DNA of 64,000 nt from Clostridia bacterium (GCA_017461745.1 JAFTXE010000105.1:34070-98069), one strand, 5' to 3'; counted from the stretch's first letter, positions 3,550 to 43,526 are shown. The notes: generated by a model from the letters alone, not told the origin. Made by a program: numbers and translations.

Positions 3550-4239
3550 TTATATTCCTCTAATACCGCAATCAAGTACGTACGGACGAATTGCTTCAAG
3601 CATTTTTCTTAAAGCTTCCTCCGAATGCTCCGTATATCCCGATACAATCGTCTCGTCGGTATCTCTGAAATTTTGCAAAAAATAGCGTTTAGCTCCCGAT
3701 ATGGATTTGGCAATGCTCAAAATGTCCTCTTCGGAATGAAGCTCCTTGACGACGGTTGTGCGGAATTCGTAATCAATACCGCTGTTCATTATAAGCTCTA
3801 TGCTTTTGAAAATGTTTTCACAAGTATCCTTAATTCCCGCCGTCTCTGAATATTTTTCTTTCGAATTTTTTATATCCATAGCAACGTAATCCACGATTTT
3901 AAGCGAGATGATCTCCTTTAGTCTCTCGTAAAAAGAACCGTTCGTGTCTAACTTTACTGAAAAGCCCATAGAATGAATTCTTTCAATAAAGGGAATAATG
4001 TCATTTTGAAGCAGAGGCTCTCCGCCCGTTATACAAACGCCGTCAAGAATACCTTTTCTTTTTGATAAAAATGAGAAGAATTCTTCTTCCGAAATATCCG
4101 TTACTTCGTTGGGAGATAATACTAACGAAGCGTTATGGCAAAACGGGCAACGAAAATTGCAGCCGCCCGTAAAAACGGTGCAGGCAACCTTGCCGGGAAA
4201 ATCTAAAAGCGTAGTTTTCTGTAGTCCTTTGATATGCAT
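3550..4239 (-). CDS. nrdG: anaerobic ribonucleotide reductase activating protein (radical SAM)
   Basis: 229 aa with a CNFRCPFCHN radical-SAM cluster motif and GGEPLL. It is adjacent to nrdD on the same strand. Confidence 0.92.
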   Translation of the reverse strand: MHIKGLQKTTLLDFPGKVACTVFTGGCNFRCPFCHNASLVLSPNEVTDISEEEFFSFLSKRKGILDGVCITGGEPLLQNDIIPFIERIHSMGFSVKLDTNGSFYERLKEIISLKIVDYVAMDIKNSKEKYSETAGIKDTCENIFKSIELIMNSGIDYEFRTTVVKELHSEEDILSIAKSISGAKRYFLQNFRDTDETIVSGYTEHSEEALRKMLEAIRPYVLDCGIRGI

Positions 4240-4472: not shown

Positions 4473-6230
4473 ATGACGATTTTTGATTTACTTACTCTTA
4501 TATTCGGTTTATCGCTGTTCCTTTTTGGAATGACACTTATGGGCGATACTCTGAAAAAAAGCGCGGGCGGCAAGCTGAAAATAATTCTCGGAAAGCTTAC
4601 GGACAGCCCACTGAAAGGCTTTGCCCTTGGCTTTGCGGTTACCGCAATAATTCAATCGTCCTCTGCGACGACGGTCATGGTCGTGGGCTTTGTTAACTCG
4701 GGAACTATGCTTCTGTCGCAGGCAGTAGGCGTTATTATGGGAGCTAACGTCGGAACGACGGTTACCTCGTGGCTGACGGCGCTATCTGGTATAGGCAGCG
4801 GCGGTGCTGTAAACTCTGTCATGCAGTGGTTTAAGCCCTCAACCTTCACCCCCGTAATCGCGCTCGTTGGATTGCTGCTGTACATGGCAGGGAAGAACGA
4901 CAAAAAGAAAAATCTCGGTCTTATTCTTCTTGGGTTTTCTGTGTTGATGATAGGAATGGATACCATGTCGGACGCTGTTTCGGGACTTGCGGAAAACCAG
5001 ACCTTCCGATCAATTCTCATGATGTTTGAGAACCCTATTCTTGGCATGCTTGCGGGACTTGTTTTGACCGCAATTGTGCAAAGCTCGTCCGCATCTATCG
5101 GTATTCTCCAATCCTTTACGGCAACGGGCGCTATAACCTTTGGAAACGCTGTGCCGATTATCATGGGTCAGAATATAGGAACTTGTGTTACTGCGCTGAT
5201 ATCCTCAACGGGAACGAGCAAGAACGCCAAGAGAACTGCGGTAGTTCATTTGCTGTTCAACGTATTCGGTTCGGCAGTATGTATGATAGTATTTTATTTA
5301 TTGAAGGGCGTCGCCAATATCGCATTCCTTGACGGAAATATCGATATGTGGGGAATTGCGATAGTTCATACCATATTCAATATAATTACCGTTATAGCGC
5401 TGCTTCCTTTTTCCAAGCAGCTTGAAAAGCTTGCTATCAAGCTTGTGCGCGATAAGAAGGGAGACGATAAATTCAGCATATTTGACGAGAGACTTATCGC
5501 TACACCCTCCGTTGCTATTGAGAGAAGCCGTGAAGGCTCTTTGAAGATGGCGGAAACATCAATGAAGGCATTTTCGGATGCTTGCGCGCTTATTGGCTCA
5601 TATGATGAAAAGATATCGCAGAGGGTAAGGGAATACGAGGGAATATCTGACGAATACGAGGATAGGCTCGGAACTTATCTCGTCAGAATTTCGGAAGAGA
5701 GTATACTTGACTCCGAGAAAAAGGAAACGACCAAGCTCTTGCATATGATAGGAGACTTTGAGAGAATTTCCGACCATGCGGTAAATATAGCGGAATCCGC
5801 CGAGGAGATGCACGATAAGAAAATTACCTTTTCCGAGAGTGCTCAAAAGGAGCTTAAGGTGCTTGTTTCGGCAGTGCTTGAAATCACGGATATAACCTAT
5901 AGGGCTGTAAATGAAGATGACTATGCTCTTGCCGCAACCGTTGAACCGCTTGAGCAGGTAATAGACACTCTCAGAGATTCCATCAAGAAGCGCCATATAA
6001 TTAGACTTCAAAATAGCGAATGTACGATAGAGCACGGATTTATTCTTTCGGATATTCTGAATAATCTTGAGCGTGTTGCCGATCATTGCTCGAATATAGC
6101 GGGCTGCTATATAGAAATGTCCAAGCACAACGCGCTTGACCTTCATAAGTACCTTAAGGATTACAGAGATAAGGAAGAGCATTTTGATACGCTCTTCAAC
6201 GAATTTTCAAAGAAATACGCGCTTGAATAA
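4473..6230 (+). CDS. Na/Pi cotransporter family protein with C-terminal PhoU-like repeats
   Basis: Polytopic N-terminal half with duplicated QSSSA(T/S) motifs, followed by a helical PhoU-like C-terminal half. I chose the ATG at 4473, 9 nt after GGAGG, over the TTG at 4464. Confidence 0.82.
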   Translation: MTIFDLLTLIFGLSLFLFGMTLMGDTLKKSAGGKLKIILGKLTDSPLKGFALGFAVTAIIQSSSATTVMVVGFVNSGTMLLSQAVGVIMGANVGTTVTSWLTALSGIGSGGAVNSVMQWFKPSTFTPVIALVGLLLYMAGKNDKKKNLGLILLGFSVLMIGMDTMSDAVSGLAENQTFRSILMMFENPILGMLAGLVLTAIVQSSSASIGILQSFTATGAITFGNAVPIIMGQNIGTCVTALISSTGTSKNAKRTAVVHLLFNVFGSAVCMIVFYLLKGVANIAFLDGNIDMWGIAIVHTIFNIITVIALLPFSKQLEKLAIKLVRDKKGDDKFSIFDERLIATPSVAIERSREGSLKMAETSMKAFSDACALIGSYDEKISQRVREYEGISDEYEDRLGTYLVRISEESILDSEKKETTKLLHMIGDFERISDHAVNIAESAEEMHDKKITFSESAQKELKVLVSAVLEITDITYRAVNEDDYALAATVEPLEQVIDTLRDSIKKRHIIRLQNSECTIEHGFILSDILNNLERVADHCSNIAGCYIEMSKHNALDLHKYLKDYRDKEEHFDTLFNEFSKKYALE

Positions 6231-7201: not shown

Positions 7202-7975
7202 TCTTTGCAATAGCTTTGAGGTAATAAGCCATGCAAGCGCGTAGAAAATAACACCTACGAGTATATCTGAGGTATAGTATACTATCATGGTGAGGATTTC
7301 TCCTACTCCGTCGGGAGCACCGTATATCTTGGTGTATTTTATATCGTGGTTAATTCTCATTGCTATCTTAATAAAAGAAAGCATCACACCCGCAAACAGA
7401 GCTCCGCATTGAATTGGATTGCTCTTGGTAAATACGGAGGAAAAATTAATTTCTTCAACCAAAGATAAGTCGCCTAACGCTTGGGCGGCTTTTTGTTTTT
7501 GCGCAAGCTGTGCGCGATATCGCTTGCCTAAGAACGTTGAAAAGGCTACCACGGTAAGCGCCATAGCCACCTCTAAGAGCAGATAAGCGCAAACGTTAAA
7601 AATATCCGTCGCATCAATATAGCTATAGGTAACGTATGTAATACCCAATACGGCAAGTCTGCGTATAAAGCACGCGATAGCGTATACTCCGCACAGCGCA
7701 AAAGCCGCCTTGGACGACCTTAGTATTGCGGCGTATATAATTATAGAATAGCATACCGCAAACGCAAGATTTTCCGCGAGCTCAAGAATTATATTTATGA
7801 TATCGGGAACGATTGAAACGCTTACCGTTATATCCGAAAGAGTCCATACGGAAATCGGCTCTAAAACAAAAGTAATGACGGCAAATAAAATGGCGCATGA
7901 GCAAATAAGAATTTTATAAAGATTTATTTTCTGTTCGCCGCTCGAAGCGGAAACCGAAGCCTTGTCTTTTTTCAT
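7193..7975 (-). CDS. polytopic membrane protein, unknown function
   Basis: 260 aa with at least 6 hydrophobic segments. SD GGAGGAG precedes the ATG. It is convergent with the XRE gene and overlaps it by 9 nt. Confidence 0.55.
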   Translation of the reverse strand: MKKDKASVSASSGEQKINLYKILICSCAILFAVITFVLEPISVWTLSDITVSVSIVPDIINIILELAENLAFAVCYSIIIYAAILRSSKAAFALCGVYAIACFIRRLAVLGITYVTYSYIDATDIFNVCAYLLLEVAMALTVVAFSTFLGKRYRAQLAQKQKAAQALGDLSLVEEINFSSVFTKSNPIQCGALFAGVMLSFIKIAMRINHDIKYTKIYGAPDGVGEILTMIVYYTSDILVGVIFYALAWLITSKLLQRSR

Positions 7976-9129: not shown

Positions 9130-10284
9130 ATGAAACACGACGACAAGCAAAAACTGTTTATATACGAGCGTGGCGTATCAATTATGCGTAAAGCCACTAC
9201 TAAGCAGGAATATCTTGAAGCAGTAGCGTATTTTGGACAGATCCCCGATTTTAACGATAGCTCAGAACTTATGACACAGTGCCTTGAGCTGTCAAAAAAC
9301 GCTGAAAAGAACGAGATATATGACAGAGCTATAGACGCAATGCGCGGCGACAGCGAGGAGGATTATAGAAGAGCGTTAGGATTGTTTTGCAGTATTGCGG
9401 ATTGGCGTGATTCCGAGTCAAAGGCTCAGCTTTGCCGTAATAGAATACAGGCGCGAATAAATCAACGTGCAAAAAAGAAGAAAATAAAAATAATTGTAGT
9501 CACCTCAATTATATCCGCAATTTTGTTGAGCGCTATTATTACTACCGTTGTGGTGGATACGGTACTTAAAAGCAAATATAACAGTGCCGAAAGAAGCTTT
9601 AAAAACGGTAAATACGCTAAAGCATATGAGCTTTATGAGGAGCTTGACGGATATAAGGATTCTATTGAAAAAATCGAGGAAATAGAGAACGAATGCAAGA
9701 AACTTGCTAAAGATATGGCGGCTAAAGGTGAATACGGCGAAGCGTACGAGCTTATGACTTCCGTTGGAATGACTGCCAAAGATTATCCGATTATAAATGC
9801 GTATAAATACGCAATGAATAAGGAATACAAAAATGCGGTAAAGGCTGGACTTACGGAAATAATAATTCCTGCGGGAGTTACTTCCATAAGTAGCGATGAA
9901 TTTCGTGATTGTCAGGAGCTTAAACGTATAACCTTCCCCTCAACACTTGAGATCATAGGAGCTAACGCATTTTACGGATGTACATCTCTTCAAGCCGTTG
10001 TATTTTCCGAAAAATGCGCATTAAAGAGCATTGGCGCTAACGCATTTAAAAATTGTTCGGCACTGCAAGATATAACTATTCCTATAAACGTAACTACGAT
10101 AGGAAAAGGCGCGTTTGCCGATTGTGGTGGATTGAAAAAGATATATTTTGAATTTACTGGAAATTGGGGAATTACCGTTGAAGGAGAGAAGATAAGATTT
10201 GATTCCTCCGAAATGGCAGACCCTACGACCGCCGCTGTAGCCGTGCTTATGGTCAACGAGGAGTTTGCGCTGTCAAGAAAATAA
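9130..10284 (+). CDS. membrane-anchored protein with C-terminal BspA-type leucine-rich repeats
   Basis: 384 aa. Lys-rich stop-transfer plus TM segment (KKKKIKIIVVTSIISAILLSAIITTVVV). C-terminal repeats IPAGVTSISSDEFRDCQELKRITFP / IGANAFYGCTSLQAVVF / IGANAFKNCSALQDITIP / IGKGAFADCGGLKKIYF. Confidence 0.75.
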   Translation: MKHDDKQKLFIYERGVSIMRKATTKQEYLEAVAYFGQIPDFNDSSELMTQCLELSKNAEKNEIYDRAIDAMRGDSEEDYRRALGLFCSIADWRDSESKAQLCRNRIQARINQRAKKKKIKIIVVTSIISAILLSAIITTVVVDTVLKSKYNSAERSFKNGKYAKAYELYEELDGYKDSIEKIEEIENECKKLAKDMAAKGEYGEAYELMTSVGMTAKDYPIINAYKYAMNKEYKNAVKAGLTEIIIPAGVTSISSDEFRDCQELKRITFPSTLEIIGANAFYGCTSLQAVVFSEKCALKSIGANAFKNCSALQDITIPINVTTIGKGAFADCGGLKKIYFEFTGNWGITVEGEKIRFDSSEMADPTTAAVAVLMVNEEFALSRK

Positions 10285-10291
10285 ATTAGAA

Positions 10292-10306
10292 AATTTTCAA
10301 AAAACT
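10292..10306. promoter_or_regulatory. candidate CodY box abutting the ilvA promoter -35
   Basis: AATTTTCAAAAAACT matches the AATTTTCWGAAAATT consensus at 13 of 15 positions. It ends 2 nt before the TTGACA at 10308-10313. Confidence 0.4.
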
Positions 10307-10339
10307 CTTGACAACGTCGAAAAAAAGGAGTATTATATT

Positions 10340-10600
10340 AATACTGCGTAGATAAGGAGCAGCTTTGATTGTGAATTTCAGAGAGTCGTTGGTCGGTGCG
10401 AAACGGCATTCGCTTCATTTGCTAAATCACCTTTGAGCTTGCTGTCGAAAGGCTTCGGCTTAGTAGAACAGTGCGTATTCCTGCGTTAAAGGGCGGTGTA
10501 TTTTAACAGTACATTACGAGTGGTCGAAAGACAAAAAGAGTGGTACCGCGAAAGTATTTTTTACCTTCGTCTCTTTGTGTAAGAAAGAGGCGAAGGTTTA
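10340..10600 (+). promoter_or_regulatory. T-box leader, specifier probably AUC (Ile)
   Basis: Promoter TTGACA (10308-10313), 17 nt, TATTAT. AGAGAG box and GGTGCGAAA distal loop at about 10379-10403. Specifier-loop TAA-ATC-A with ATC at 10426-10428. T-box sequence AGAGTGGTACCGCGAAAG at about 10537-10554. A 14-bp terminator lies at 10563-10597, followed by a T-tract. Confidence 0.88.
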
Positions 10601-10632
10601 TTTATTTTATTTCAGAATGTGAGGAAAATCAA

Positions 10633-11826
10633 ATGTTGACACTTGATAAGGTTTACCATGCGGCGTTTGTGCTAAAAGACGTAGTGAGAGAAACGTCTCT
10701 CATACCTTCGCCTAAGATAAGCAAAACGAATAACGTATTTTTAAAAACCGAAAATCTTCAGGTTACGGGTTCTTTTAAGGTCAGAGGTGCGGGATATATG
10801 ATATCTCAGCTTACCGAGGAGGAAAAGCAGAGAGGTGTTATCGCTTGTTCCGCGGGCAATCACGCGCAGGGCGTTGCGCTTGCGGCGGCAAAGTACGGTA
10901 TAAAATCCGTAATATGCTTGCCCGACGGCGCGCCTATGTCCAAGGTCGAGGCAACTAAGAGCTACGGCGCAGAGGTCGTAATGGTCAAAGGAGTTTACGA
11001 CGACGCATATAAGCGCGCGCTTGAGCTTCGCGACGAAATGGGATATACCTTCGTTCACCCCTTTGATGACGATAACGTTATCGCGGGTCAGGGAACTATC
11101 GGTCTTGAAATACTTAACAATATGAAGGATATAGACGCCGTAGTCGTTCCGATAGGAGGCGGCGGACTTATATCGGGTATAGCATACGTTATCAAGCACT
11201 TGAATCCTAACGTGAAGGTGTACGGTGTTCAGGCGGCGGGCGCTCCGAGTATGTTCAACTCGGTCAAGGACGGAAAAATTGAAAGACTTGATTCCGTATC
11301 CACGATAGCAGACGGTATTGCAGTCAAGGAGCCGGGAGCTAACACGTTTAAGCTTTGCTCCGAGTACGTTGACGATATAGTAACCGTTACCGAGGGCGAG
11401 ATATCATCTGCGATATTGGCGCTTATAGAACAGCATAAGATGATAGCTGAGGGCGCAGGCGCGGTTGCGGTTGCCGCAGTCATGTTCGATAAGCTTCCTA
11501 TCAAGGATAAAAACGTCGTGTGCGTTGTATCGGGCGGTAATATTGACGTTACTATTCTCTCAAGAGTTATTGAGCGCGGCTTGCTTACGTCGGGAAGAAC
11601 CTGCAATCTCTGCATAGAGCTTATGGATAAGCCGGGACAGCTCCAGCTTGTTTCTTCGATTATTGCGTCCCTTGGCGGAAACGTTATATCAGTACATCAC
11701 GAAAGAGCGAGTGAAACGATGGATATCAACGGCTGTTATCTCCGAATAGTTCTTGAAACCAAGAATTACGAGCACATAGACAGCATTACCTCGGCGCTCA
11801 CAGCCGCAGGCTTCAGACTTGTATAA
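10633..11826 (+). CDS. ilvA: threonine ammonia-lyase (biosynthetic threonine dehydratase)
   Basis: PLP-lysine motif GSFKVRGA, GGGGLISG glycine loop, C-terminal ACT-like domain. The start is set at ATG 10633 after GAGGAAAA. The track ORF start at 10540 runs through the T-box terminator. Confidence 0.92.
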   Translation: MLTLDKVYHAAFVLKDVVRETSLIPSPKISKTNNVFLKTENLQVTGSFKVRGAGYMISQLTEEEKQRGVIACSAGNHAQGVALAAAKYGIKSVICLPDGAPMSKVEATKSYGAEVVMVKGVYDDAYKRALELRDEMGYTFVHPFDDDNVIAGQGTIGLEILNNMKDIDAVVVPIGGGGLISGIAYVIKHLNPNVKVYGVQAAGAPSMFNSVKDGKIERLDSVSTIADGIAVKEPGANTFKLCSEYVDDIVTVTEGEISSAILALIEQHKMIAEGAGAVAVAAVMFDKLPIKDKNVVCVVSGGNIDVTILSRVIERGLLTSGRTCNLCIELMDKPGQLQLVSSIIASLGGNVISVHHERASETMDINGCYLRIVLETKNYEHIDSITSALTAAGFRLV

Positions 11827-12217: not shown

Positions 12218-12339
12218 GCCTGTTGTTGTAATGGTGCTTCAAAAATAATTAAAATGTCATATAAAATTGTGTAAAATTAATCAAAATGCAAAACATTTTG
12301 CAATTCTATTGACAAAAGTCGAATTTCATGGTAAAATTA

Positions 12340-12634
12340 CTCCATAAATTTTAATTATAATAATGTGGCGTTTGAAGGGAATCAGTAGTTTGCAAAGCAT
12401 TTCCAGAAAGTCGGTGGGTGATGCGAACCGATAATGTTAGCTTATGAATCTCCTCCCCCAGCCTCCGCTTGAAGGTCAGGTTTGATTGCGTAGACGCGGA
12501 CGGGTTGTTTCCGTTATCATGAACAGCTTCACTGTAAGGTGAGGGCAGAGTGGCATTATTGCAATAAGAGTGGTACCGCAGAGAGTTTCTTGACCTTTGT
12601 CTCTTAGAAATTTAAGAGATAAAGGTCATTTTTG
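12340..12634 (+). promoter_or_regulatory. T-box leader (specifier ambiguous: AUC/CUC overlap)
   Basis: Promoter TTGACA (12309-12314), 17 nt, TAAAAT. GA/K-turn TGAAGGGAATCAGTA. AGAAAG box plus GGTGATGCGAA distal loop. T-box AAGAGTGGTACCGCAGAG at 12566-12583. A 15-bp terminator lies at 12592-12626, followed by TTTTT. Confidence 0.85.
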
Positions 12635-12661
12635 ATAAAATTTAAAAATTAAGGAGAAAAC

Positions 12662-14320
12662 ATGATTTTAAACGGTTCTGAAATTCTTGTAAATGTTCTG
12701 TTAGAGCAGGGTGTTGATACCGTATTCGGTTACCCGGGCGGAGCAGTTCTTAACATTTACGATGCGCTGTATAAGAACAGCGATAAAATACGTCATATAA
12801 TGACTGCGCATGAGCAAGGCGCTTCTCATGCGGCAGACGGTTATGCGAGAGCAACGGGAAAAACGGGAGTTGTTATCGCTACCAGCGGTCCTGGCGCTAC
12901 TAATCTTGTTACGGGTATTGCGACTGCTTATATGGACAGCGTTCCTATGGTTGCGATAACGGGTAACGTTTCCACTCCTCTTATCGGTTGCGATAGCTTC
13001 CAGGAGGTATATATTGCAGGTATCACGATGCCCATTACCAAGCATAACTTCGTCGTAAGAAAGGTCGAAGACCTTGCGGATACACTTCGCGCGGCGTTCA
13101 AGATAGCGGCAAGCGGCAGACCCGGTCCTGTCCTTGTGGATATCCCCAAGGACGTTACTGCGAATAAGACTACGTATACTCCCGTAACTTGCGCGGAGGA
13201 TAAGGCTGACGATACTATCGACGGAGACATCATTGAGATAGCCGAGCTTATCAACAGAGCGGAGCGCCCCTTCATTTACTTTGGCGGCGGTGTCGGAATT
13301 TCCTGTGCGTCGGACGAGCTTCGCGAGCTTGTCGAAAAGGCGGATATTCCCGCGGCGTACACGCTTATGGCAGCAGGGGTGCTTGGGTACGGCGAGAAAA
13401 ACAATCTCGGACTTATGGGAATGCACGGCTGCTACTCGGCTAACTGCGCGGCAAACAGAGCCGACGTTATGATTGCAATAGGAACGAGATTCAGCGACAG
13501 AGTTGCGCTCAATACTGAAAAATTCGGTCATAACGCTAAGATAGTTCATATAGATATCGACCCGGGCGAGATAGGCAAGAATATCATTGCCGATTATAGC
13601 GTAGTTGGCGACGTTAAAGCCGTACTTACCGAGCTTCTCAAGCATATAAAGCCCGCAAAGCATGATGCATGGTCTGAGCAGATAAGCAAATGGAAGCTTG
13701 ATGACTATATTCCCGAGGACAGTGATACCGAGCTTAAGCCACATTACGTTATAGGCAAGGCTTGCGAGATAGCAGGTGAGGACGCAGTTTACGTAACCGA
13801 CGTCGGACAGCATCAGATGTGGGCAGCTCAGTACATAAAGCACGTACATCCCCGTAATTTCCTTACAAGCGGCGGCTTGGGTACGATGGGCTACGGCTAC
13901 GGCGCGGCACTCGGTGCTAAGACCGCCCGTCCCGACGTTCCTGTAATTCATTTCACGAGTGACGGCTCGCTTCATATGAACATGAATGAGCTTTGTACCG
14001 CAGTAAGCTATAAAATCCCCGTAATTACGGTTATACTCAATAACGCCGTTCTCGGTATGGTAAGACAGTGGCAGGGCGTATTCTACGGACAGAGATATTC
14101 TTCCAGTGAGCCTGAGCGTGTAACCGATTACGTAAAGGTTGCTCAAGCCTTTGGCGGTCGAGGATATCATTGCGAGACCCCGGCTGAGTTTGAAGAAGCA
14201 ATGAAGCAAGCTATGAAGGCTGACGGACCCGTATGGATAGAATGCGTTATCGACCGCGAGGAAAAGGTTCTTCCCATGATTCCCGCAGGCGGAACGGTTC
14301 ACGATACCATATTCAAATAA
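12662..14320 (+). CDS. ilvB: acetolactate synthase large subunit (ThDP-dependent)
   Basis: 552 aa. Family-typical N-terminus GSEILVNVLLEQGVDTVFGYPGGAVL and ThDP motif GGLGTMGYGYGAALGA...DGS...N. Confidence 0.95.
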   Translation: MILNGSEILVNVLLEQGVDTVFGYPGGAVLNIYDALYKNSDKIRHIMTAHEQGASHAADGYARATGKTGVVIATSGPGATNLVTGIATAYMDSVPMVAITGNVSTPLIGCDSFQEVYIAGITMPITKHNFVVRKVEDLADTLRAAFKIAASGRPGPVLVDIPKDVTANKTTYTPVTCAEDKADDTIDGDIIEIAELINRAERPFIYFGGGVGISCASDELRELVEKADIPAAYTLMAAGVLGYGEKNNLGLMGMHGCYSANCAANRADVMIAIGTRFSDRVALNTEKFGHNAKIVHIDIDPGEIGKNIIADYSVVGDVKAVLTELLKHIKPAKHDAWSEQISKWKLDDYIPEDSDTELKPHYVIGKACEIAGEDAVYVTDVGQHQMWAAQYIKHVHPRNFLTSGGLGTMGYGYGAALGAKTARPDVPVIHFTSDGSLHMNMNELCTAVSYKIPVITVILNNAVLGMVRQWQGVFYGQRYSSSEPERVTDYVKVAQAFGGRGYHCETPAEFEEAMKQAMKADGPVWIECVIDREEKVLPMIPAGGTVHDTIFK

Positions 14321-33042: not shown

Positions 33043-33051
33043 GAGGTGTAT

Positions 33052-34110
33052 ATGAAAAAAGTATATTTGGTAACTGAAGACGGACGTAGCTTTGTGGGAT
33101 ATTCCTTCGGAGCTGAAATCGAGACTTGCGGAGAATTGGTATTCAATACGGGAATGGTCGGTTATATCGAAACGCTGACTGATGCCGCAAATTACGGACA
33201 GATAGTCGTAGATACCTTCCCAATGGTAGGAAACTACGGAATTATTCCCGAGGATTTTGAAGGTAAGTGCGTAGTTAAGGGCTTCATAGTTCGTGAATGG
33301 TGTGATACACCTTCAAATTTCAGATGTGAATACGACCTTGATAAATTCCTTAAGGATAACGGTGTTGCGGGCGTTTGTGGAATTGATACGAGAGAAATTA
33401 CTAAGCATATCCGCGAGAACGGCGTTATGAACGCAAAAATTTGTTACAGTATCCCTTCAAATCTTGATGAAATAAAGAATTATAAGATAATCAACGCAGT
33501 TGAAGCTGTAACCTGCAAGGAAGCTGCTGTTTATGAGGCTGACGGTGAAGCTAAGTATAACGTAACCGTAGTTGATTACGGAGTTAAGAAGAGCTTCGTT
33601 GACGAATTGTGCCGCAGAGGCTGTAACGTAAAAGTAGTACCTGCAAATACTTCTGCTGAAGCAATTCTTGCGGATAAGCCTGACGGAGTTATGCTTTCGG
33701 GAGGTCCCGGAGATCCTGCTGAGAACGTTGAGCTCATTACCGAAATCGGTAAAATGTTCGGCAAGGTTGCTATGTTCGGTATAGGTCTTGGACATCAGAT
33801 GATGGCGCTTGCAAACGGTGCCGCAACGTATAAGCTGAAATACGGTCACAGAGGCGGAAATCAGCCTTCGCATAAGCTCAATACAAACCGTACCTATATT
33901 ACTTCTCAGAACTGTGGATATGCGGTTGCATCTAATAGCCTCGGAAAAGGCGCGGTGAATTTTGTTAATGCTAATGACAATACTTGTGAAGGTATAGAAT
34001 ACGAAGGATGCAAGGCGTTCTCCGTACAGTTCTACCCCGAAGCTGTTGATGGGCTTCACAGTACGTCGTTCCTTTATGACAAGTTTATCGAATTGATGGG
34101 AGGTAATTGA
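33052..34110 (+). CDS. carA: carbamoyl-phosphate synthase small (glutaminase) subunit
   Basis: Class I amidotransferase domain with the catalytic-Cys position in context MFGIGLGHQMM (apparently Cys to Gly; see finding). I preferred the ATG at 33052 after AGAGG over the GTG at 33046. Confidence 0.9.
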   Translation: MKKVYLVTEDGRSFVGYSFGAEIETCGELVFNTGMVGYIETLTDAANYGQIVVDTFPMVGNYGIIPEDFEGKCVVKGFIVREWCDTPSNFRCEYDLDKFLKDNGVAGVCGIDTREITKHIRENGVMNAKICYSIPSNLDEIKNYKIINAVEAVTCKEAAVYEADGEAKYNVTVVDYGVKKSFVDELCRRGCNVKVVPANTSAEAILADKPDGVMLSGGPGDPAENVELITEIGKMFGKVAMFGIGLGHQMMALANGAATYKLKYGHRGGNQPSHKLNTNRTYITSQNCGYAVASNSLGKGAVNFVNANDNTCEGIEYEGCKAFSVQFYPEAVDGLHSTSFLYDKFIELMGGN

Positions 34111-34111
34111 T

Positions 34112-37100
34112 ATGCCGCTTAATAAGGATATAAAGAAAGTATTGGTTATAGGTTCAGGTCCTATAGTTATCGGACAAGCTGCGGAATTTGACTACGCAGG
34201 CGCACAGGCATGCCGCGTACTCAAGGAAGCGGGAGTAAACGTTGTTCTTGTAAACTCAAACCCCGCTACTATTATGACGGATAACGCTCTTGCAGATGAA
34301 ATTTATCTTGAGCCTCTGACCTCGGAAACGGTAAAGCGTATAATTGAAAAGGAAAAGCCCGATAGCTTGCTTGCTGGACTCGGTGGACAGACGGGTCTTA
34401 CAATAGCAATGCAGCTGTCTCACGATGGATTTCTCCGTTCTCACGGCGTAAGACTTCTCGGAACTGACGCAAAGGCAATTGATAAGGCAGAGGATAGACA
34501 GCTCTTTAAGGAAACGATGGAATCCATAGGAGAGCCTTGTATTCCTTCCGATATCGCAAACGACGTTGACACCGCGCTGATGATTGCATCGTCAATCGGA
34601 TATCCCGTTATCGTTCGTCCCGCATTTACTCTTGGTGGAGCAGGCGGTGGAGTTGCTAATACTCCTGAGGAGCTGGCAGTTGTAGCGCAGACGGGTCTTG
34701 ATGCGTCTCCTATAACGCAGATACTTGTTGAGAGATATATTTTCGGTTGGAAGGAAATAGAATTTGAAACCATGAGAGACGCCGCAGGCAACGCTATTGC
34801 GGTTTGTAGCATGGAAAACTTTGACCCCGTTGGAGTTCATACGGGTGACTCCATAGTTGTCGCTCCTGCGCTGACGCTTTCCAATAAGGAATATCAGATG
34901 CTTCGTACCGCATCACTTAACATAGTCAACGCTTTGGGAATAGTCGGTGGCTGTAACTGTCAGTTTGCGCTCAATCCCAATAGCTTTGAGTATGCGGTTA
35001 TTGAGGTTAACCCCCGCGTTTCGCGTTCCTCAGCTCTCGCTTCAAAGGCGAGCGGATATCCTATCGCAAAGATCACCACGAAGGTGGCTCTCGGATATAC
35101 GCTTGATGAGATCAAGAATGATATTACGGGTAAGACCTGCGCTTGCTTTGAGCCTACGCTTGACTACGTAGTTGTTAAATTCCCCAAGTGGCCCTTTGAT
35201 AAATTCAATGGCTCCAGCCGTAAGCTTGGAACTCAGATGAAGGCTACGGGTGAGGTTATGTCTATCGGACCTTCCTTCGAAATGGCTATAATGAAGGCAG
35301 TTCGCGGAGCAGAGATATCGCTCGATACGCTTAACGCGCTTCCTCTTAACGATAAGCCTTTGGAAGAAAGACTTGCCGCAATGGATGACCGCAGAATATT
35401 TACCGTATTCGAGGCTCTTAAGAAAGACGTTTCTATTGAAACTATCCATAACATCACGAAGATAGATCCTTGGTTCTTGAATAAGCTTAAAAAGCTCGTT
35501 GATTTTGAGCTTGCGCTTGCGGAAAACGGACTTGACGCCGATTCTTATAAGCAGGGTAAGATGCTCGGTTATACCGATAAGGCTCTTGCAAGACTTGGCG
35601 GCGATACACCCGTGAAAAAGATGGATGCGGCATATAAGATGGTTGATACCTGCGCTGCTGAATTTGATGCTCAAACGCCTTACTTCTACTCAACATACGG
35701 CGGAGTTTGCGAGGCAAGAGGATTTAAGAAGAGCGGCAAGCCCACCATATTGGTTCTTGGCTCAGGTCCTATAAGAATAGGACAGGGAATTGAGTTCGAC
35801 TATTCCTCTGTACACTGCGTATGGGCGCTTAAGGAATTGGGATATGACGTGGTTATCGTTAATAATAATCCCGAGACCGTTTCTACCGACTACGATACAG
35901 CGGACAGACTTTATTTCGAGCCTCTCACGCCTGAGGACGTTATGAATATTATCAAGGTCGAAAATCCCATTGGCGTTGTTGTTGCATTCGGCGGACAGAC
36001 GGCAATTAAGCTGACTCAGTTCCTTGATGATAACGGAATTAAGATTCTTGGAACTTCCGCGGAGGGAATAGACACCGCTGAGGATAGAGAAAAGTTTGAT
36101 GCGCTCCTTGAAAAGTTCAATATTCGCCGTCCCGTTGGTACGAGCATTATGACTACGCAGGAGGCTCTTGATGCGGCAGAGAAGATAGGTTATCCCGTTC
36201 TTCTTCGTCCCTCATACGTTATCGGCGGTCAGAATATGTCCATCGTATACAGTCCCCGTGAGGTTGAAACGTATATGACGCGTATTCTCGCTACGGGAAT
36301 AGAAAATCCCGTTCTCGTTGATAAATATATGATGGGAACAGAGCTTGAGGTTGACGTTATTTCCGACGGTAAGGACGTTCTTATACCGGGTATCATGCAG
36401 CACGTTGAGCGCGCGGGCGTACACAGCGGTGACTCTATTGCGGTATATCCCCCCTTCAGTATTAACGATAAGCTCTTGACCACGGTCGTTGAGTCCTCCG
36501 AGAAGCTTGCGCTTTCACTGGGAACTAAGGGACTTGTAAATATTCAGTACCTTATCTATCGCAATGAGCTTTACGTAATTGAAGTAAATCCCAGAGCATC
36601 AAGAACAGTTCCTTATATCAGTAAGGTTACGGGTGTTCCTATGGTAGACCTTGCAACTAAGGTAATGATAGGCGCGTCGCTTAAGTCTCTCGGATACGGC
36701 ACGGGTCTTTACCGCACACCTCCTTATTTTGCAGTTAAAGTTCCCGTATTCTCCTTCCAGAAGCTTACCGACGCCAACTCCTACCTCGGACCTGAAATGA
36801 AGTCCACGGGTGAGGTTTTGGGACTTGGTAAAAATCTTAACGAAGCTATATTCAAGGGACTTACTTCGGCAGGCTTCAATCTCAAAGCGCCTTCCTTTGG
36901 CGAAGACGTCGGAGTTTATATAAGCGTTGGCGAGCATGATCTTCTTGAAATCGTATCACTTGCAAAGAAGCTTGATGACCTCGGAATGAAGATCTATTCC
37001 TCCGCTGATACGGCAAAGGCAATTGAAAGTCTTGGAGTTACCGTTACTGCGGTTGGTAAGGTTGGTGAGTCCGACGACGTTTATAAGCTTATCGAATCGG

Positions 37101-38146
37101 GCAATATCAGCTATATCGTTTATACGGGTACGCTGTTTGATTCTTCTCTTACGGATTATATCAATCTTCACAGAAAGGCTCTCCAGCACGGAGTCGCTTG
37201 CCTGACGTCTCTTGATACCGCAAACGCTCTTGCTGATATTATCGCAAGCCGTTACAATCAGCAGAATACAGAGCTTGTTGATATCAATAATATGCGCACC
37301 GAGCCTATGACTATTAAGTTCTCCAAGATGCAGGGAACGGGTGATGACTATATCTTCATTGATAACTTCGACGGAAATATTACCTGTCCCGAATCCTTGA
37401 GCCTTACGATGTGTAACAGACATTACGGCGTAGGCGCTGACGGATTGGTTCTCATAGAGAAATCCGATGTTGCTGACGCTCGTATGCGTATCTTCAATCG
37501 CGATGGTAGTGAAGGTAAGATGGCAGGTAACAGTATTCGTTGCGTTGGTAAGTATCTCTACGATAACGGTATTATCCTTAAGGATAGAATGGATATCGAG
37601 ACGGGAAGCGGCGTTAAGGATCTGAGACTCTATACGAGAAACGGAAAGGTAACTACCGTAAGCGTTGGAATGGGTAAGGCAAGCGTGCTCGTTAAGGATA
37701 TTCCCACGACTATCGAGGCAGAGAAGGTGGTTGACTATCCTCTTACTATTGGTGGAAAGACCTATAACGTAACCCTCGTTTCTACGGGTAACCCCCACTG
37801 CGTAGTATTTACCGATTACGTTGACGGAGTTGATATCGAAAAGGTTGGACCTCTCTTTGAGAACGCACCTGAATTCCCAGAGAGAATAAATACCGAATTC
37901 GTTCGCGTAGTAAATTCCAATACTCTTAAGATGAGAGTTTACGAAAGAGGAAACGGCGAAACCCTCGCTTGCGGAACGGGAGCTTGCGCAGCTGTCGTAG
38001 CTGCTGTTGAAAACGGCTACTGCAAGAAGGGCGATGACATAACCGTTAAGCTTCGCGGCGGAGACCTCGTAGTTAAATATACCGACGAAAAGCTTATTCT
38101 TACGGGTAACGCAGAACTCGTATATCAGGGCTTTATTGAAGACTAA
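34112..38146 (+). CDS. carB: carbamoyl-phosphate synthase large subunit fused in frame to a DapF-like (diaminopimelate epimerase fold) domain
   Basis: 1344 aa. Residues 1-1065 form a complete CarB: two ATP-grasp halves (GSGPIVIGQAAEFDYAG / GSGPIRIGQGIEFDYS) and an MGS-like tail. Residues 1066-1344 (nt 37307-38146) align with DapF: MTIKFSKMQGTGDDY, FNRDGSE, GNPHCV, ERGNGETLACGTGA. No stop codon lies between the two parts. Confidence 0.88.
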   Translation: MPLNKDIKKVLVIGSGPIVIGQAAEFDYAGAQACRVLKEAGVNVVLVNSNPATIMTDNALADEIYLEPLTSETVKRIIEKEKPDSLLAGLGGQTGLTIAMQLSHDGFLRSHGVRLLGTDAKAIDKAEDRQLFKETMESIGEPCIPSDIANDVDTALMIASSIGYPVIVRPAFTLGGAGGGVANTPEELAVVAQTGLDASPITQILVERYIFGWKEIEFETMRDAAGNAIAVCSMENFDPVGVHTGDSIVVAPALTLSNKEYQMLRTASLNIVNALGIVGGCNCQFALNPNSFEYAVIEVNPRVSRSSALASKASGYPIAKITTKVALGYTLDEIKNDITGKTCACFEPTLDYVVVKFPKWPFDKFNGSSRKLGTQMKATGEVMSIGPSFEMAIMKAVRGAEISLDTLNALPLNDKPLEERLAAMDDRRIFTVFEALKKDVSIETIHNITKIDPWFLNKLKKLVDFELALAENGLDADSYKQGKMLGYTDKALARLGGDTPVKKMDAAYKMVDTCAAEFDAQTPYFYSTYGGVCEARGFKKSGKPTILVLGSGPIRIGQGIEFDYSSVHCVWALKELGYDVVIVNNNPETVSTDYDTADRLYFEPLTPEDVMNIIKVENPIGVVVAFGGQTAIKLTQFLDDNGIKILGTSAEGIDTAEDREKFDALLEKFNIRRPVGTSIMTTQEALDAAEKIGYPVLLRPSYVIGGQNMSIVYSPREVETYMTRILATGIENPVLVDKYMMGTELEVDVISDGKDVLIPGIMQHVERAGVHSGDSIAVYPPFSINDKLLTTVVESSEKLALSLGTKGLVNIQYLIYRNELYVIEVNPRASRTVPYISKVTGVPMVDLATKVMIGASLKSLGYGTGLYRTPPYFAVKVPVFSFQKLTDANSYLGPEMKSTGEVLGLGKNLNEAIFKGLTSAGFNLKAPSFGEDVGVYISVGEHDLLEIVSLAKKLDDLGMKIYSSADTAKAIESLGVTVTAVGKVGESDDVYKLIESGNISYIVYTGTLFDSSLTDYINLHRKALQHGVACLTSLDTANALADIIASRYNQQNTELVDINNMRTEPMTIKFSKMQGTGDDYIFIDNFDGNITCPESLSLTMCNRHYGVGADGLVLIEKSDVADARMRIFNRDGSEGKMAGNSIRCVGKYLYDNGIILKDRMDIETGSGVKDLRLYTRNGKVTTVSVGMGKASVLVKDIPTTIEAEKVVDYPLTIGGKTYNVTLVSTGNPHCVVFTDYVDGVDIEKVGPLFENAPEFPERINTEFVRVVNSNTLKMRVYERGNGETLACGTGACAAVVAAVENGYCKKGDDITVKLRGGDLVVKYTDEKLILTGNAELVYQGFIED

Positions 38147-38157
38147 TGTTTAAAATT

Positions 38158-38197
38158 AGGAGCTGAATCATTAAATTGGTTCAGCTCCTTTTGTTTA
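38158..38197 (+). terminator. rho-independent terminator of the arg operon
   Basis: AGGAGCTGAA / TTCAGCTCCT stem (38158-38189) followed by TTTGTTT. Confidence 0.8.
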
Positions 38198-38332
38198 TCT
38201 AAAAAATTCATTAAAAATAAGTAAAAAAATGGAAAAGCAAAACATTGACATTGTTATTTTATTGTCAATCTGTACGGCTGATAATCTTCTTAAACACATT
38301 GGTTTGTCGAAAATAGTACAACTTCTACAAGT

Positions 38333-38357: not shown

Positions 38358-38386
38358 TTGACAACTCAAAATAATAATGATATAAT
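38358..38386 (+). promoter_or_regulatory. sigma-A promoter of adhE
   Basis: TTGACA (38358-38363), 17 nt, TATAAT (38381-38386). Confidence 0.7.
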
Positions 38387-38461: not shown

Positions 38462-41080
38462 ATGGCAGAAAAGACGTACGGAATTGTAGACGGTGTAGAG
38501 GCGCTTGAGGCAAAGCTTGCTCAGGTAAGAGCTGCTCAGGCTGAATTTGCAACGTATACACAGGAACAGGTAGACAAAATTTTCTTTGCGGCAGCATCGG
38601 CGGCAAATAAGGCAAGAATATCTCTTGCTAAAATGGCAGTCGAAGAGACGGGTATGGGCGTAGTTGAGGATAAGGTTATCAAGAATCACTATGCTTCCGA
38701 ATACATCTACAACGCTTATAAGGATACCAAGACCTGCGGAGTAATCGAGGAGGACACATCCTACGGAATTAAGAAGATAGCTGAGCCTATCGGCGTAATT
38801 GCGGCGGTTATTCCCACAACCAACCCCACGTCCACGGCAATTTTCAAAACTCTTCTCGCGCTCAAGACGAGAAACGGAATTATCATCAGCCCTCACCCCA
38901 GAGCAAAGCTTTCCACCATAGCTGCGGCAAAGCTCGTGCTTGAAGCGGCAGTTGAGGCAGGCGCTCCCGAAGAAATTATCGGTTGGATAGACGTTCCTTC
39001 TCTTGAAATGACCAACACGGTCATGAAGGAAGCGGATATTATTCTCGCAACGGGTGGTCCGGGAATGGTTAAGGCGGCATACTCCAGCGGTAAGCCCGCA
39101 CTTGGCGTTGGCGCAGGTAACACCCCCGCTATTATCGACGAGTCCGCTGATATTCTTCTTGCTGTCAGCTCCATTATTCACTCCAAGACCTTTGATAACG
39201 GTATGATATGCGCATCTGAGCAGTCCGTTATCGTAATTGATAAGATATACAATAAGGTAAAGAAGGAATTCGCAACCAGAGGTTGTTATTTCCTTACTCA
39301 CGATGAGACCGAAAAGGTAAGAAAGACCATTATAATCAATGGCGCGCTTAACGCAAAAATCGTTGGTCAGAGCGCTTATAAGATTGCGGCTCTCGCAGGA
39401 GTTGAAGTTCCTGAAAAGACTAAGATACTTATAGGCGAGGTTGAGAGCGTTGAGCTTTCCGAGGAATTTGCTCACGAGAAGCTTTCTCCCGTTCTTGCCA
39501 TGTATAAGGCTAAGAGCTTTGAGGACGCTGTCGCAAAGGCAGAGGTTCTCGTTGCTGACGGCGGTTACGGACATACGTCCTCGCTCTATATCGACGAGGT
39601 CGCTAACAAGGAAAAGACCGCTTATTTTGCATCTCATATGAAGACCTGCCGTATTCTCGTTAATACTCCCTCCGCTCACGGCGGTATCGGTGACCTTTAT
39701 AACTTCAAGCTCGCTCCTTCGCTTACTCTTGGATGCGGCTCTTGGGGTGGTAACAGCGTATCCGAAAACGTAGGTGTAAAGCATTTGCTTAATATCAAAA
39801 CAGTAGCCGAGAGGAGAGAGAATATGCTTTGGTTCAGAGCGCCTGAAAAGGTTTATATAAAGAAGGGCTGCTTGCCCGTAGCTCTTGACGAGCTTAAGAA
39901 CGTTCTTGGCAAGAAGAAGGCGTTTATCGTAACCGATAGCTTCCTTTACAAGAACGGCTATACAAAGTGCATCACCGATAAGCTTGATTGCATGGGAATT
40001 ACTCATACCACGTTCTATAACGTCGCTCCCGACCCCTCTCTTGCAAGTGCTATGGAAGGCGCGGCTCAGATGAAGTCCTTCGAGCCCGACGTTATAATCG
40101 CGCTTGGCGGCGGTTCCGCAATGGACGCTGCAAAGATCATGTGGGTGCTTTATGAGCATCCCGAGGTAGACTTCATGGATATGGCTATGAGATTTATCGA
40201 TATCCGTAAGAGAGTTTACACATTCCCCAAGATGGGCGAAAAGGCATACTTCATCGCAATTCCTACCTCTGCGGGAACAGGCTCTGAGGTTACTCCTTTT
40301 GCGGTAATCACCGATGAAAAGACAGGTATTAAGTATCCTCTGGCTGACTATGAGCTCATGCCCGATATGGCAATAATCGATACCGACCTTCATATGTCAG
40401 CTCCCAAGGGTCTGACTGCCGCTTCGGGTATCGACGCGGTAACTCACGCGCTTGAAGCATACGCAGCTATGCTCGCTACCGATTACACCGACGGTCTTGC
40501 GCTCCGTTCTCTTAAGATGGTATTTGAATACCTTCCCAGAGCTTACGACAACGGTCAGACCGACGTTGAAGCAAGAGAGAAGATGGCTAACGCGGCAACC
40601 ATGGCAGGTATGGCATTCGCAAACGCATTCCTCGGCGTATGTCACTCCATGGCTCACAAGCTCGGTGCTTTCCACCATCTCCCCCACGGCGTAGCAAATG
40701 CGCTGATGATAGACGAGGTGCTTCGTTTCAATGCAAGCGAAGCTCCCGTAAAGATGGGTACTTTCTCTCAGTACGATCATCCTCACACTCTCGCAAGATA
40801 TGCGGAGGTTGCTGATTACCTTGGAATTAAGGGTAAGAACGACGAAGAAAAGCTCGAAAATCTTATCAAGGCTCTTGACGAGCTCAAGGCTCGCGTAGGC
40901 ATCAAGCCCACGATTAAGGATTACGTTCCCGATGAGGCAGACTTCCTTGCACGCCTTGACGATATGGTAGAGCAGGCGTTCGACGACCAGTGCACAGGCG
41001 CTAATCCCAGATATCCTCTTATGAGTGAGATCAAGCAGATGTATCTCAATGCGTACTACGGCACGCACACCGAAATATAA
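38462..41080 (+). CDS. adhE: bifunctional acetaldehyde-CoA / alcohol dehydrogenase
   Basis: 872 aa. An N-terminal aldehyde dehydrogenase domain and a C-terminal iron-containing ADH domain ([18 protein letters not shown]). Confidence 0.95.
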
Positions 41081-42305: not shown

Positions 42306-43526
42306 ATGAAATTTAATAACGTTGATTTTGATACTTATTTTAATAATTATCCCGATAAAAACGGATACTTCGGTAAATACGGCGGAGTTTACGTTGACGA
42401 TAAGCTTAAGGCGGCAATGGCTGAGATAACGGAGGCTTATTATTCGATATGTCAGTCAAGAAAATTTATTGCTGAGCTCAGAAGAATAAGAAAGGAATTT
42501 CAGGGAAGACCTACTCCTGTAACTCACCTTGAAAGACTTTCGGATGCTCTCGGCGGCAAGGTTCAGCTTTACGCAAAGCGCGAGGATTTGAACCATTCTG
42601 GCGCGCATAAGCTAAATCACTGCATGGGTGAGGCACTTTTGGCAAAATATATGGGTAAAAAGAAGGTTATTGCGGAAACGGGTGCGGGACAGCACGGTGT
42701 TGCTTTGGCTACCGCGGCGGCATACTTCGGACTTGAGTGCGATATATATATGGGCTCGGTAGATATCAAGAAGCAAGCGCCAAACGTTGCTCGTATGAAA
42801 ATACTCGGCGCAAACGTCGTAGAAGTAACTCACGGACTCCAGACCTTAAAGGAAGCCGTTGACGCGGCGTTTGACGCATACAGCAAGGAATATAAGGATT
42901 CTATATACTGCATCGGTTCGGTTCTCGGACCTCATCCTTTTCCCATGATGGTTCGTGATTTCCAGAGCGTCGTCGGTATCGAAGCAAGAGAACAGTTTGT
43001 GGAAATGACGGGACATCTGCCAAGCGCAATAGTTGCGTGCGTTGGAGGCGGTTCAAACGCAGCGGGACTTTTTGCAGGCTTCCTCAACGATAACGTTGAT
43101 ATATACGGTATAGAACCTCTTGGAAGAGGACCAAAGCTTGGAGACCATGCCGCAAGCCTTAAGTACGGCACGGAAGGAATCATGCACGGATTTAACAGTA
43201 TAATGCTTAAGGATGAAAACGGAGAGCCTGCTCCCGTGTATTCCGTAGCAAGCGGGCTTGATTATCCGTCTTCAGGTCCTGAACACGCTTTTCTACAGGA
43301 AATAGGCAGAGTAAAGTATGATGTTATCGACGATGAGGAAACTATAGACGCATTCTATAAGCTTTCTCGCCTTGAGGGAATAATTCCCGCAATTGAAAGC
43401 TCCCATGCGGTAGCATTCGGCATGAAGTTGGCAAAAACTATGGATCACGGCTCTATTCTTATAAACCTTTCGGGAAGAGGTGATAAGGATATGGATTACG
43501 TTATCGAAAAATACGGTATCAGATAA
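42306..43526 (+). CDS. trpB: tryptophan synthase beta chain-like PLP enzyme (stand-alone)
   Basis: 406 aa. [14 protein letters not shown]-lysine motif [19 protein letters not shown]. No trpA or other trp genes are in the window. Confidence 0.85.

Follow-up and report, generated by a model that had tools for sequence, protein, structure and literature searches.

We report here a gene in which a complete large subunit of carbamoyl-phosphate synthase (CPS), CarB, is joined in a single open reading frame (ORF) to a module derived from DapF, the diaminopimelate (DAP) epimerase, with an alanine residue in place of the catalytic Cys73. The gene lies at positions 34112–38146 (+) of a 64000-nucleotide stretch of DNA from Clostridia bacterium (GCA_017461745.1, JAFTXE010000105.1:34070-98069), the whole of which is hereafter called the window. 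DapF, a target for antibacterial agents, is a textbook example of a two-base (Cys/Cys) enzyme. Judged from its sequence, the DapF-derived C-terminal part of the protein (hereafter the tail) appears to be a maintained and remodelled DAP site rather than a relic, and the reading which we favour, although weakly, is that it is a re-optimised epimerase whose acid/base on the L-face is not a thiol.

In ungapped phmmer alignments with the DapFs of solved structure 2OTN, 9MRO and 3EJX, the window sequence SEGKMAGNSIRC lay over SEGKSCGNGLRC, SEPEMCGNGIRC and SEPEMCGNGVRC. The alanine of KMAGNSIRC lay opposite the catalytic cysteine of the CGNG motif, in the Cys73 column, and the ACGTGA motif of the tail kept Cys217. 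A MAFFT alignment of 248 sequences likewise placed residue 73 of the tail exactly on Cys73 of the E. coli enzyme. The codons concerned, all on the + strand, are GCA for Ala73 (37523–37525), TGC for the retained catalytic Cys217 (37970–37972), GAT for an aspartate at the Asn11 position (37343–37345; GNDF changed to GDDY) and AGT for a serine at the Gly76 position (37532–37534; CGNG changed to AGNS). An original prediction, made by a model from the DNA alone, had read the alanine, the retained cysteine and the replacement of GNDF by GDDY; its residues and codon positions proved exact, and the Cys73 column, where a cysteine would have spoken against it, is occupied by alanine in the alignments.

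We compared 122 sequences of what we call the Ala/Gly clade, which are 46–89% identical to the window tail, with 125 canonical DapFs. Position 73 was alanine in 118 and glycine in four of the clade members, and cysteine in 125/125 canonical enzymes. Position 11 was asparagine in 68 and aspartate in 54 clade members, as against asparagine in 125/125, and position 76 was serine, cysteine, alanine or asparagine in the clade, as against glycine or alanine only. These are the only three changed positions and all of them are on the Cys73 side of the reacting carbon; Asp11 was paired with Ser76 or Cys76 in 50 of the 54 sequences that carry it. The DAP contacts Asn64, Gly74, Asn75, Asn157, Asn190, Glu208, Arg209, Gly218 and Thr219 are present in the window protein and, together with His159 and Cys217 (the latter in 121/122), are invariant in 120–122 of the 122 clade members, as they are in the 125 canonical DapFs.

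The tail thus has the two-domain fold of canonical DapF (TIGR00652/PF01678; 1BWZ and 2GKE from H. influenzae, 2OTN from B. anthracis, and 9MRO), a full match to the family model, the DAP-binding residues, His159, Glu208, Cys217 and the aromatic residue of the dimerisation surface (Tyr268 in E. coli). It differs from the canonical enzyme in the replacement, in the window, of Cys73 by alanine, Asn11 by aspartate and Gly76 by serine, and in being a C-terminal module of CarB with neither a start codon nor a Shine–Dalgarno sequence of its own, whereas canonical DapF is a free protein of ~280 residues. Because the defining catalytic features Cys73 and (in the window) Asn11 are missing, we call the tail DapF-derived and do not class it among the DapF enzymes. 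In Corynebacterium glutamicum DapF, the mutants C83A (equivalent to Cys73) and N15A (equivalent to Asn11) are nearly inactive (PMC5296763). Lacking the Cys73 thiol, the tail cannot run the textbook two-thiol mechanism, which backs the earlier view that it is no standard two-thiol epimerase.

Two other cysteine residues were considered as compensating thiols and rejected. Cys27 (TCPES; window 37385–37387, codon TGT/TGC), which starts the first outer helix of the DapF N-domain, is found in 110/122 members of the Ala/Gly clade and is almost absent from canonical DapFs. However, it is also present (as ACPEE) in P0163, a canonical sister of the clade, and must therefore be older than the loss of Cys73. 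Cys76 is found in only about one-quarter of the clade members.

The tail is under strong purifying selection. Among 63 intact fusions, its mean pairwise identity was 0.65, compared with 0.57 for the allosteric and 0.58 for the oligomerisation domain of CarB. Its ratio of non-synonymous to synonymous substitution rates (dN/dS) was 0.03–0.19, similar to that of the CarB core, the less diverged pairs being the more reliable as dS was near saturation in the pairs involving the window. All four alanine codons and GGC are in use at position 73, showing that the substitution is old and that a small residue is actively maintained there; no cysteine revertant was found among more than 200 sequences, though GGC to TGC is a single step. 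An AlphaFold model of residues 930–1344 had a mean predicted local distance difference test score of 90 and a predicted template-modelling (TM) score of 0.72, with the former dipping to 65–76 at the junction and mostly above 90 in the DapF part, for which Foldseek returned as best match the ligand-bound cyanobacterial DapF 9MRO (TM score 0.91, root-mean-square deviation 1.8 Å). It is the invariance of the DAP contacts and Cys217, together with the dN/dS values, which argues that the tail is a maintained site and not a relic.

The fusion is older than the loss of Cys73. An exhaustive search of representatives revealed full-length CarB–DapF fusions with the canonical cysteine, such as P0124 (NCBI MGI6497870.1, from an Oscillospiraceae metagenome-assembled genome, MAG), a protein of 1349 residues with the motif EMCGNAIRC, encoded by a carA-carB::dapF unit on a 1.68-Mb contig; P0125, P0123 and P0136 are further Cys-type fusions. 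They share with the window the architecture, the carA-carB::dapF arrangement and a short junction (..ELIDINRMRTEKYKLPFTKMQG..), but differ in keeping MCGNAIRC with Cys73, Asn11 and Ala/Gly76. They are uncharacterised, are annotated as CarB only, and are presumably ordinary bifunctional enzymes. Cysteine residues occupied both catalytic columns in 130 of the 150 nearest representatives at 50% identity. A neighbour-joining tree built from DapF domains grouped the Ala/Gly types in one clade with no Cys type inside it; the nearest neighbours of this clade were P0163, which is a canonical stand-alone DapF encoded in a dapF-dapL operon, the fused Cys types P0123–P0125 and the stand-alone P0097. As fusions with the canonical cysteine exist and the Ala/Gly types are monophyletic, fusion came first and Cys73 was lost later, once, in a single clade. 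The original prediction had described fusion and cysteine loss together; both are real, but they are separate events, since fusions of the P0124 type keep Cys73. For the same reason, the CarB–DapF architecture itself implies no new function.

Some more unusual proteins were seen beside these. P0121 (512 residues) links the N-terminal carbamoyl-phosphate-binding domain of ornithine carbamoyltransferase directly to the C-terminal portion of the allosteric domain of CarB and a Gly73 DapF tail, and could be either a misassembly or the product of a deletion joining argF to the 3′ end of carB::dapF. P0236 (692 residues), P0238 (1046 residues) and P0136 (418 residues) are Cys-type DapFs, 42–49% identical to the tail, with N-terminal parts derived from CarB, one of which resembles half of CarB (D1-D2-D3) followed by DapF. 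Their existence suggests that the association of CarB with DapF may extend beyond the present clade and take more varied forms.

The Ala/Gly fusion is widespread. When one genome per GTDB species was scanned with the tail, at least 361 genomes had a relative, and the best 80 loci were inspected. The DapF part was in frame with carB in 80/80 of these, of which 62 were intact and the other 18 ran into a contig end, with no stop codon in any; residue 73 was alanine or glycine in all 80 and cysteine in none. The intact fusions were 1337–1347 residues long. With at least 361 species-level genomes in which it is fixed, the fusion predicted for a single gene is real and is no one-off. Cultured carriers include Oscillibacter valericigenes and a Dysosmobacter sp. 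(RefSeq WP_235228438.1 and WP_441626869.1, both named CarB only), and look-ups of the protein clusters gave no cultured names beyond these two genera. Other carriers are MAGs of Acutalibacteraceae and Aristaeellaceae, numerous uncultured Clostridia of the gut and rumen, and a very prevalent human-gut carrier with a protein cluster of 6949 members. The window protein itself (NCBI MBQ8818578.1) is named 'carbamoyl-phosphate synthase large subunit' alone, and its DapF module is unannotated in NCBI and RefSeq. The original prediction knew of no description of the architecture. A search of 8 million full texts agrees with it, as we found no description of the fusion, of a natural DapF lacking Cys73 or of dapF in these genera.

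Next, we considered how the carriers obtain meso-DAP, which they need and which they may have no second means of making; the cell wall of Dysosmobacter welbionis contains it (PMC13599835). A curated reconstruction of Oscillibacter ruminantium GH1 lists DapL, DapH, LysA and one DapF (peg.2707, not adjoining dapL and a candidate for the fusion), with no Ddh and no DapF2 (PMC9026213, Table S2). Eubacterium siraeum DSM 15702, one of only two reference genomes flagged in that work as 'missing DapF', is described as a lysine prototroph with DapL, DapA, DapB and LysA present and no Ddh or DapF2, and its arg operon (pegs 283–290) is ordered as in the window (PMC9026213). If its CarB (~peg 292) were a fusion, the gap would be explained. 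DapF2 is a pyridoxal-phosphate-dependent, alanine-racemase-like DAP epimerase (Ashniev 2022, PMC9026213; confirmed in GapMind 2026). It is non-homologous to the tail, fills 'missing DapF' in Firmicutes with a likewise non-canonical enzyme, and is not reported for Oscillibacter or E. siraeum (PMC9026213). A tblastn search aimed at another dapF or at ddh found none in 1.14 Mb, which covered only ~8–10 kb flanking each fusion locus, and the relatives of the canonical stand-alone P0163 included no Oscillibacter or Dysosmobacter names. Finally, E. coli ΔdapF grows normally (bioRxiv 10.1101/2024.10.14.618325), showing that a low epimerase flux can suffice.

Starting from the observed anatomy, conservation, phylogeny and selection of the tail, we propose, with low confidence as to the ligand, the persistence of catalysis and the part given to water, the following mechanism. 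With all DAP contacts invariant, DAP most likely remains the ligand: the tail would bind LL- or meso-DAP in an unchanged pocket and would still perform the interconversion of LL- and meso-DAP of its lineage. Cys217 would handle the D-face proton. The L-face proton would be handled by water or a proton relay in the cavity left by the obligatory small residue 73; the Glu208/His159 network, together with residues 11 and 76 as remodelled (Asp11 and Ser76 in the window), may hold this water or relay in place. As part of the last gene of the arg operon, the fused module would be expressed at the level of CarB, which could offset a slower turnover. A re-optimised epimerase fits the unchanged pocket, the invariance of Cys217, His159 and Glu208, and a small residue 73 that does not revert. 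The need of the carriers for meso-DAP, the single DapF of O. ruminantium, the DapF gap in E. siraeum, the lack of Oscillibacter and Dysosmobacter names among the relatives of P0163 and the tolerance of a low flux also count in its favour. A crippled epimerase fits the first two of the three sequence features and not the third. That the single-thiol tail is, beyond this, the sole DAP epimerase of a large gut and rumen clade building meso-DAP peptidoglycan is possible but doubtful.

Several points weigh against a re-optimised epimerase. The nearly inactive C83A and N15A mutants of C. glutamicum DapF (see above) carry changes at the very positions altered here, and Cys→Ser variants of DapF-family enzymes retain only ~0.1% activity (PMC8225329). 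No substitute acid/base is conserved across the clade, since position 11 is asparagine or aspartate and position 76 serine, cysteine, alanine or asparagine. The absence of revertants among the more than 200 sequences suggests that a thiol at position 73 is apparently unwanted. In addition, other Oscillospirales often have a canonical dapF adjoining dapL (for example Anaerotruncus, C. leptum, Intestinimonas, Pseudoflavonifractor and R. bromii), making a redundant dapF paralogue in the carriers plausible.

The same redundancy could have permitted the loss of Cys73 if the tail were a DAP-sensing pseudoenzyme, the alternative that survives best, which we regard as somewhat unlikely. Another enzyme, a stand-alone DapF or Ddh, would then make meso-DAP, and the fused module, disabled, would bind its ligand without turnover. 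The open-to-closed movement of DapF would be relayed through the ~10-residue tether to the MGS domain, coupling the supply of carbamoyl phosphate (for arginine and pyrimidines) to the status of the cell-wall and lysine precursor. The loss of a catalytic residue with retention of the whole binding pocket is a classic signature of pseudoenzymes. The inactivity of the C83A mutant, the invariably small residue 73 without reversion, and the direct and rigid attachment of the module to the allosteric domain, through a linker that is short and conserved in length and in a model with the predicted TM score given above, all accord with it. A pure binder, however, would be expected to drift at its catalytic residues, whereas Cys217, His159 and Glu208 are invariant in 121–122 of 122 sequences as in true enzymes; a pure sensor therefore fits the unchanged pocket and the small residue 73, and not this invariance. 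The fusions with the canonical cysteine show that the architecture needs no sensor role, and the second dapF or ddh which this alternative calls for was not found within the ~8–10 kb flanks that were searched. To our knowledge, there is neither a physiological logic nor a precedent for control of CPS by DAP. The original prediction had offered both a ligand-sensing role and a different chemistry as possibilities, which our data neither bear out nor exclude.

An unlikely alternative is one-base chemistry on a DAP-like substrate, in which Cys217 alone would deprotonate or protonate the α-carbon and the space at position 73 would accommodate a leaving group or substituent, the reaction being either an elimination or a decarboxylation followed by protonation. 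Strict retention of Cys217, His159 and Glu208, selection for a small residue at position 73 and the confinement of remodelling to positions 11 and 76 on the Cys73 side are all consistent with such chemistry. So is the occurrence in the same superfamily fold of trans-3-hydroxy-L-proline dehydratases (Cys/Thr; 6R76 and 4K7G, both returned by Foldseek), in which one catalytic cysteine is naturally replaced. These dehydratases nevertheless belong to another Pfam family, carry threonine or serine rather than alanine or glycine as the replacement, and have a pocket changed from that of the racemases, whereas the DAP pocket of the tail is unchanged. The analogy with proline-racemase-fold dehydratases drawn in the original prediction is thus weak. 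The match of the tail to the proline racemase family PF05544 was below threshold (22.7 bits compared with 27; TM score ~0.5–0.55 and 15% identity by Foldseek). Since the two ends of DAP are still read by the same residues, one would expect DAP itself to be the substrate, and it has no leaving group; primary metabolism has no known DAP derivative that would suit, and the operon context (arg/car, and leu in Oscillibacter) points to no new pathway. New chemistry therefore fits the invariant catalytic residues and the small residue 73, and not the unchanged pocket.

The nearest relatives are the uncharacterised CarB–DapF fusions that keep Cys73. The window protein had no match to the PhzF family PF02567 at E≤0.01 (Foldseek TM score ~0.5, 14–15% identity), and the Chlamydia-type bifunctional DapF/glutamate racemase model NF038284 scored 116.6 bits against a cutoff of 350. 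A mechanistic precedent comes from arylmalonate decarboxylase and E. coli YgeA, relatives of two-cysteine racemases in which one cysteine is replaced by glycine or threonine and the remaining cysteine still catalyses. They belong to the Asp/Glu-racemase superfamily, with a fold unrelated to that of the tail, and serve as a precedent for mechanism only.

It is very improbable that the tail is an inert relic, that is, a redundant dapF accidentally fused, deprived of its cysteine and carried neutrally or as structural ballast. The pathways of carB and dapF are unrelated, and a few metagenome contigs do carry stop codons or deletions. The selection data contradict this view: the dN/dS is 0.03–0.19, the tail exceeds two CarB domains in conservation, and its ligand-binding residues are invariant at 46–89% overall identity. 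None of the 80 reference loci was interrupted, and the contigs bearing lesions were favoured by the apparent length limit of the search that found them. A protein search with the 279-residue tail returned only targets of 272–488 residues, many of them 'MGS+DapF' proteins of 448 or 449 residues on long contigs. Targets were apparently no longer than 1.75 times the query (488 residues for the 279-residue query and 1225 for one of 700 residues), so that broken copies were enriched and intact 1344-residue proteins hidden.

The lesions themselves were found in metagenome and MAG contigs: a TAG at a lysine codon in L001 (~7941–7943), a TAA in L004 (~5955–5960) and in L008 (~3950–3955), and a deletion of ~56 nt in L005 (~1000–1010). 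All four correspond to window codons ~880–887 (nt ~36750–36775) and fall within one stretch of ~12 codons, AVKVPVFSFEKL, just 5′ of LGPEMKSTGE, where the TAA lesions read 'VFI*EKL' and 'SFE*L'. A fifth, in L007 (~5956–5958), is a TAG at a glutamine codon in YNQQNTE. These lesions account for the recurrent 448/449-residue ORF calls. With no lesion at any of the 80 reference loci, their apparent enrichment comes mostly from the length limit of the search, although there may be a mild hotspot in AVKVPVFSFEKL. The stand-alone and 'MGS+DapF' proteins were also considered as split genes and rejected, the cases inspected being contig-edge fragments, an N-gap (L006) or rare lesions. Likewise, a 355-residue 'member' of the L070 cluster on 41 contigs, suspected to be a recurrent split allele, proved to be CarA.

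That carB and dapF were joined artificially, by a lost stop codon or a frameshift arising in assembly or sequencing of the window contig, has practically no chance of being true, as four contigs, which come from two or more samples, encode an identical 1344-residue protein, its 90% cluster of six members spans NCBI and Logan assemblies, and the 62 independent genomes with uninterrupted fusions include the two RefSeq isolates named above.

The gene itself encodes 1344 residues, with an ATG start at 34112, a TAA stop at 38144–38146 and no internal stop codon. A Shine–Dalgarno sequence, GGGAGG, lies at 34098–34103 (+), 8 nt 5′ of the ATG. It is preceded by carA (33046–34110, +), the glutamine amidotransferase small subunit, identified by Pfam CPSase_sm_chain and GATase on the identical gene of contig L002; a single base separates the carA stop TGA (34108–34110) from the ATG of the fusion, and from this spacing the two genes are predicted to be translationally coupled. 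Residues 1–1048 (34112–37255, +) form a complete CarB, with two ATP-grasp halves and the oligomerisation domain. Over these residues, the NCBIfam carB equivalog NF003671 scored 1435 bits (cutoff 599) and TIGR01369 1394 bits (cutoff 1027). Pfam found CPSase_L_D1 twice, D2 twice, D3 once and MGS, the last being the allosteric domain at residues 946–1032 (36947–37207, +; PF02142, 43.4 bits). Equivalog score, domain set and the adjoining, co-transcribed carA all identify this part as CarB.

The junction (residues ~1059–1068, 37286–37315, +; ...VDINNMRTEPMT...) contains neither a stop codon nor a Shine–Dalgarno sequence, and the two modules are joined by ~10 residues (...ELVDINNMRTEPMTIKFSKMQG...). 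Among relatives, the linker has a mean pairwise identity of 0.47 and a conserved length. The DapF module is a complete two-domain unit (residues 1068–1342, 37313–38137, +) supported by TIGR00652, two PF01678 matches, AlphaFold2 and Foldseek. The DapF equivalog TIGR00652 scored 280–285 bits against a cutoff of 114.65 over model positions 1–268 of 270, and the second of the two PF01678 DAP_epimerase domains ended at residue 1336. As the equivalog models are covered nearly end to end, both CarB and DapF are full length. We found no Shine–Dalgarno sequence 5′ of the internal ATG at 37307, and the initial methionine of the tail is peculiar to the sub-lineage of the window, most relatives having RQSLKF or RQKLKF at this point.

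A strong intrinsic terminator at 38158–38199 (+; also delimited as 38158–38189), with a 13-bp stem containing six GC pairs and a T-tract, closes the arg-car operon. This terminator, followed by a separate promoter for adhE, makes the fusion gene the last of the operon. Here the original prediction held well: it had described one in-frame ORF of 1344 residues, which the ORF call, Pfam and NCBIfam confirm, with CPSase, MGS and DAP_epimerase domains, all of which were matched; it had seen no ribosome-binding site at 37307, where the ATG itself is mostly absent from relatives; and it had placed the gene at the end of the arginine operon.

The adhE gene (38462–41080) has a perfect extended σ70 promoter at 38358–38386 (+), with TTGACA, a 17-nt spacer and TG-n-TATAAT (12/12), within the AT-rich stretch of 315 nt (GC ~0.35) that separates this gene from the arg-car terminator. 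The whole is part of a long co-directional biosynthetic super-cluster (window ~10540–60459, +) in the order ilvA, ilvB, ilvC, coaX, ilvD, leuA, leuC, leuB, ilvE, argG, argH, argC, argJ, argB, argD, argF, carA, carB::dapF, adhE, an APH-like kinase gene, trpB, a gene for a DNA-alkylation-repair protein, purE, purF, purM and further genes. The trpB gene (42306–43526) is an orphan, with no trpA seen adjoining it. The order argF-carA-fusion was found at 45 loci. In Oscillibacter and Dysosmobacter, an AsnC-type regulator gene and carA lie 5′ of the fusion, and leuA-leuC-leuD-leuB lie 3′. In contig L001 (NCBI MAG GCA_054290425.1), a Mur-ligase-family gene and an N-acetylmuramoyl-L-alanine amidase gene (9805–11154 and 12264–12827) lie 3′ of the fusion, a peptidoglycan context not seen in the window, where adhE comes next.

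The finding bears first on annotation. Because the module is invisible under the name CarB, reconstructions of lysine and peptidoglycan synthesis and predictions of auxotrophy for gut Clostridia can err in either direction, DapF being scored as 'missing' or counted as functional when it is not. Were the tail indeed the sole epimerase of its carriers, it would explain curated 'missing DapF' gaps such as that of E. siraeum, and would be a cofactor-independent amino-acid epimerase naturally lacking the 'obligatory' thiol pair. More generally, a natural variant with alanine or glycine fixed in place of Cys73, and with the other active-site residues mostly intact, exists in hundreds of species and may represent a means, so far undescribed, by which cells handle DAP, the precursor of cell wall and lysine. 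Epimerisation of DAP by the tail would show that the thiol pair can be dispensed with; its absence would make the tail a clean natural case of the conversion of an enzyme into a sensor or a new catalyst.

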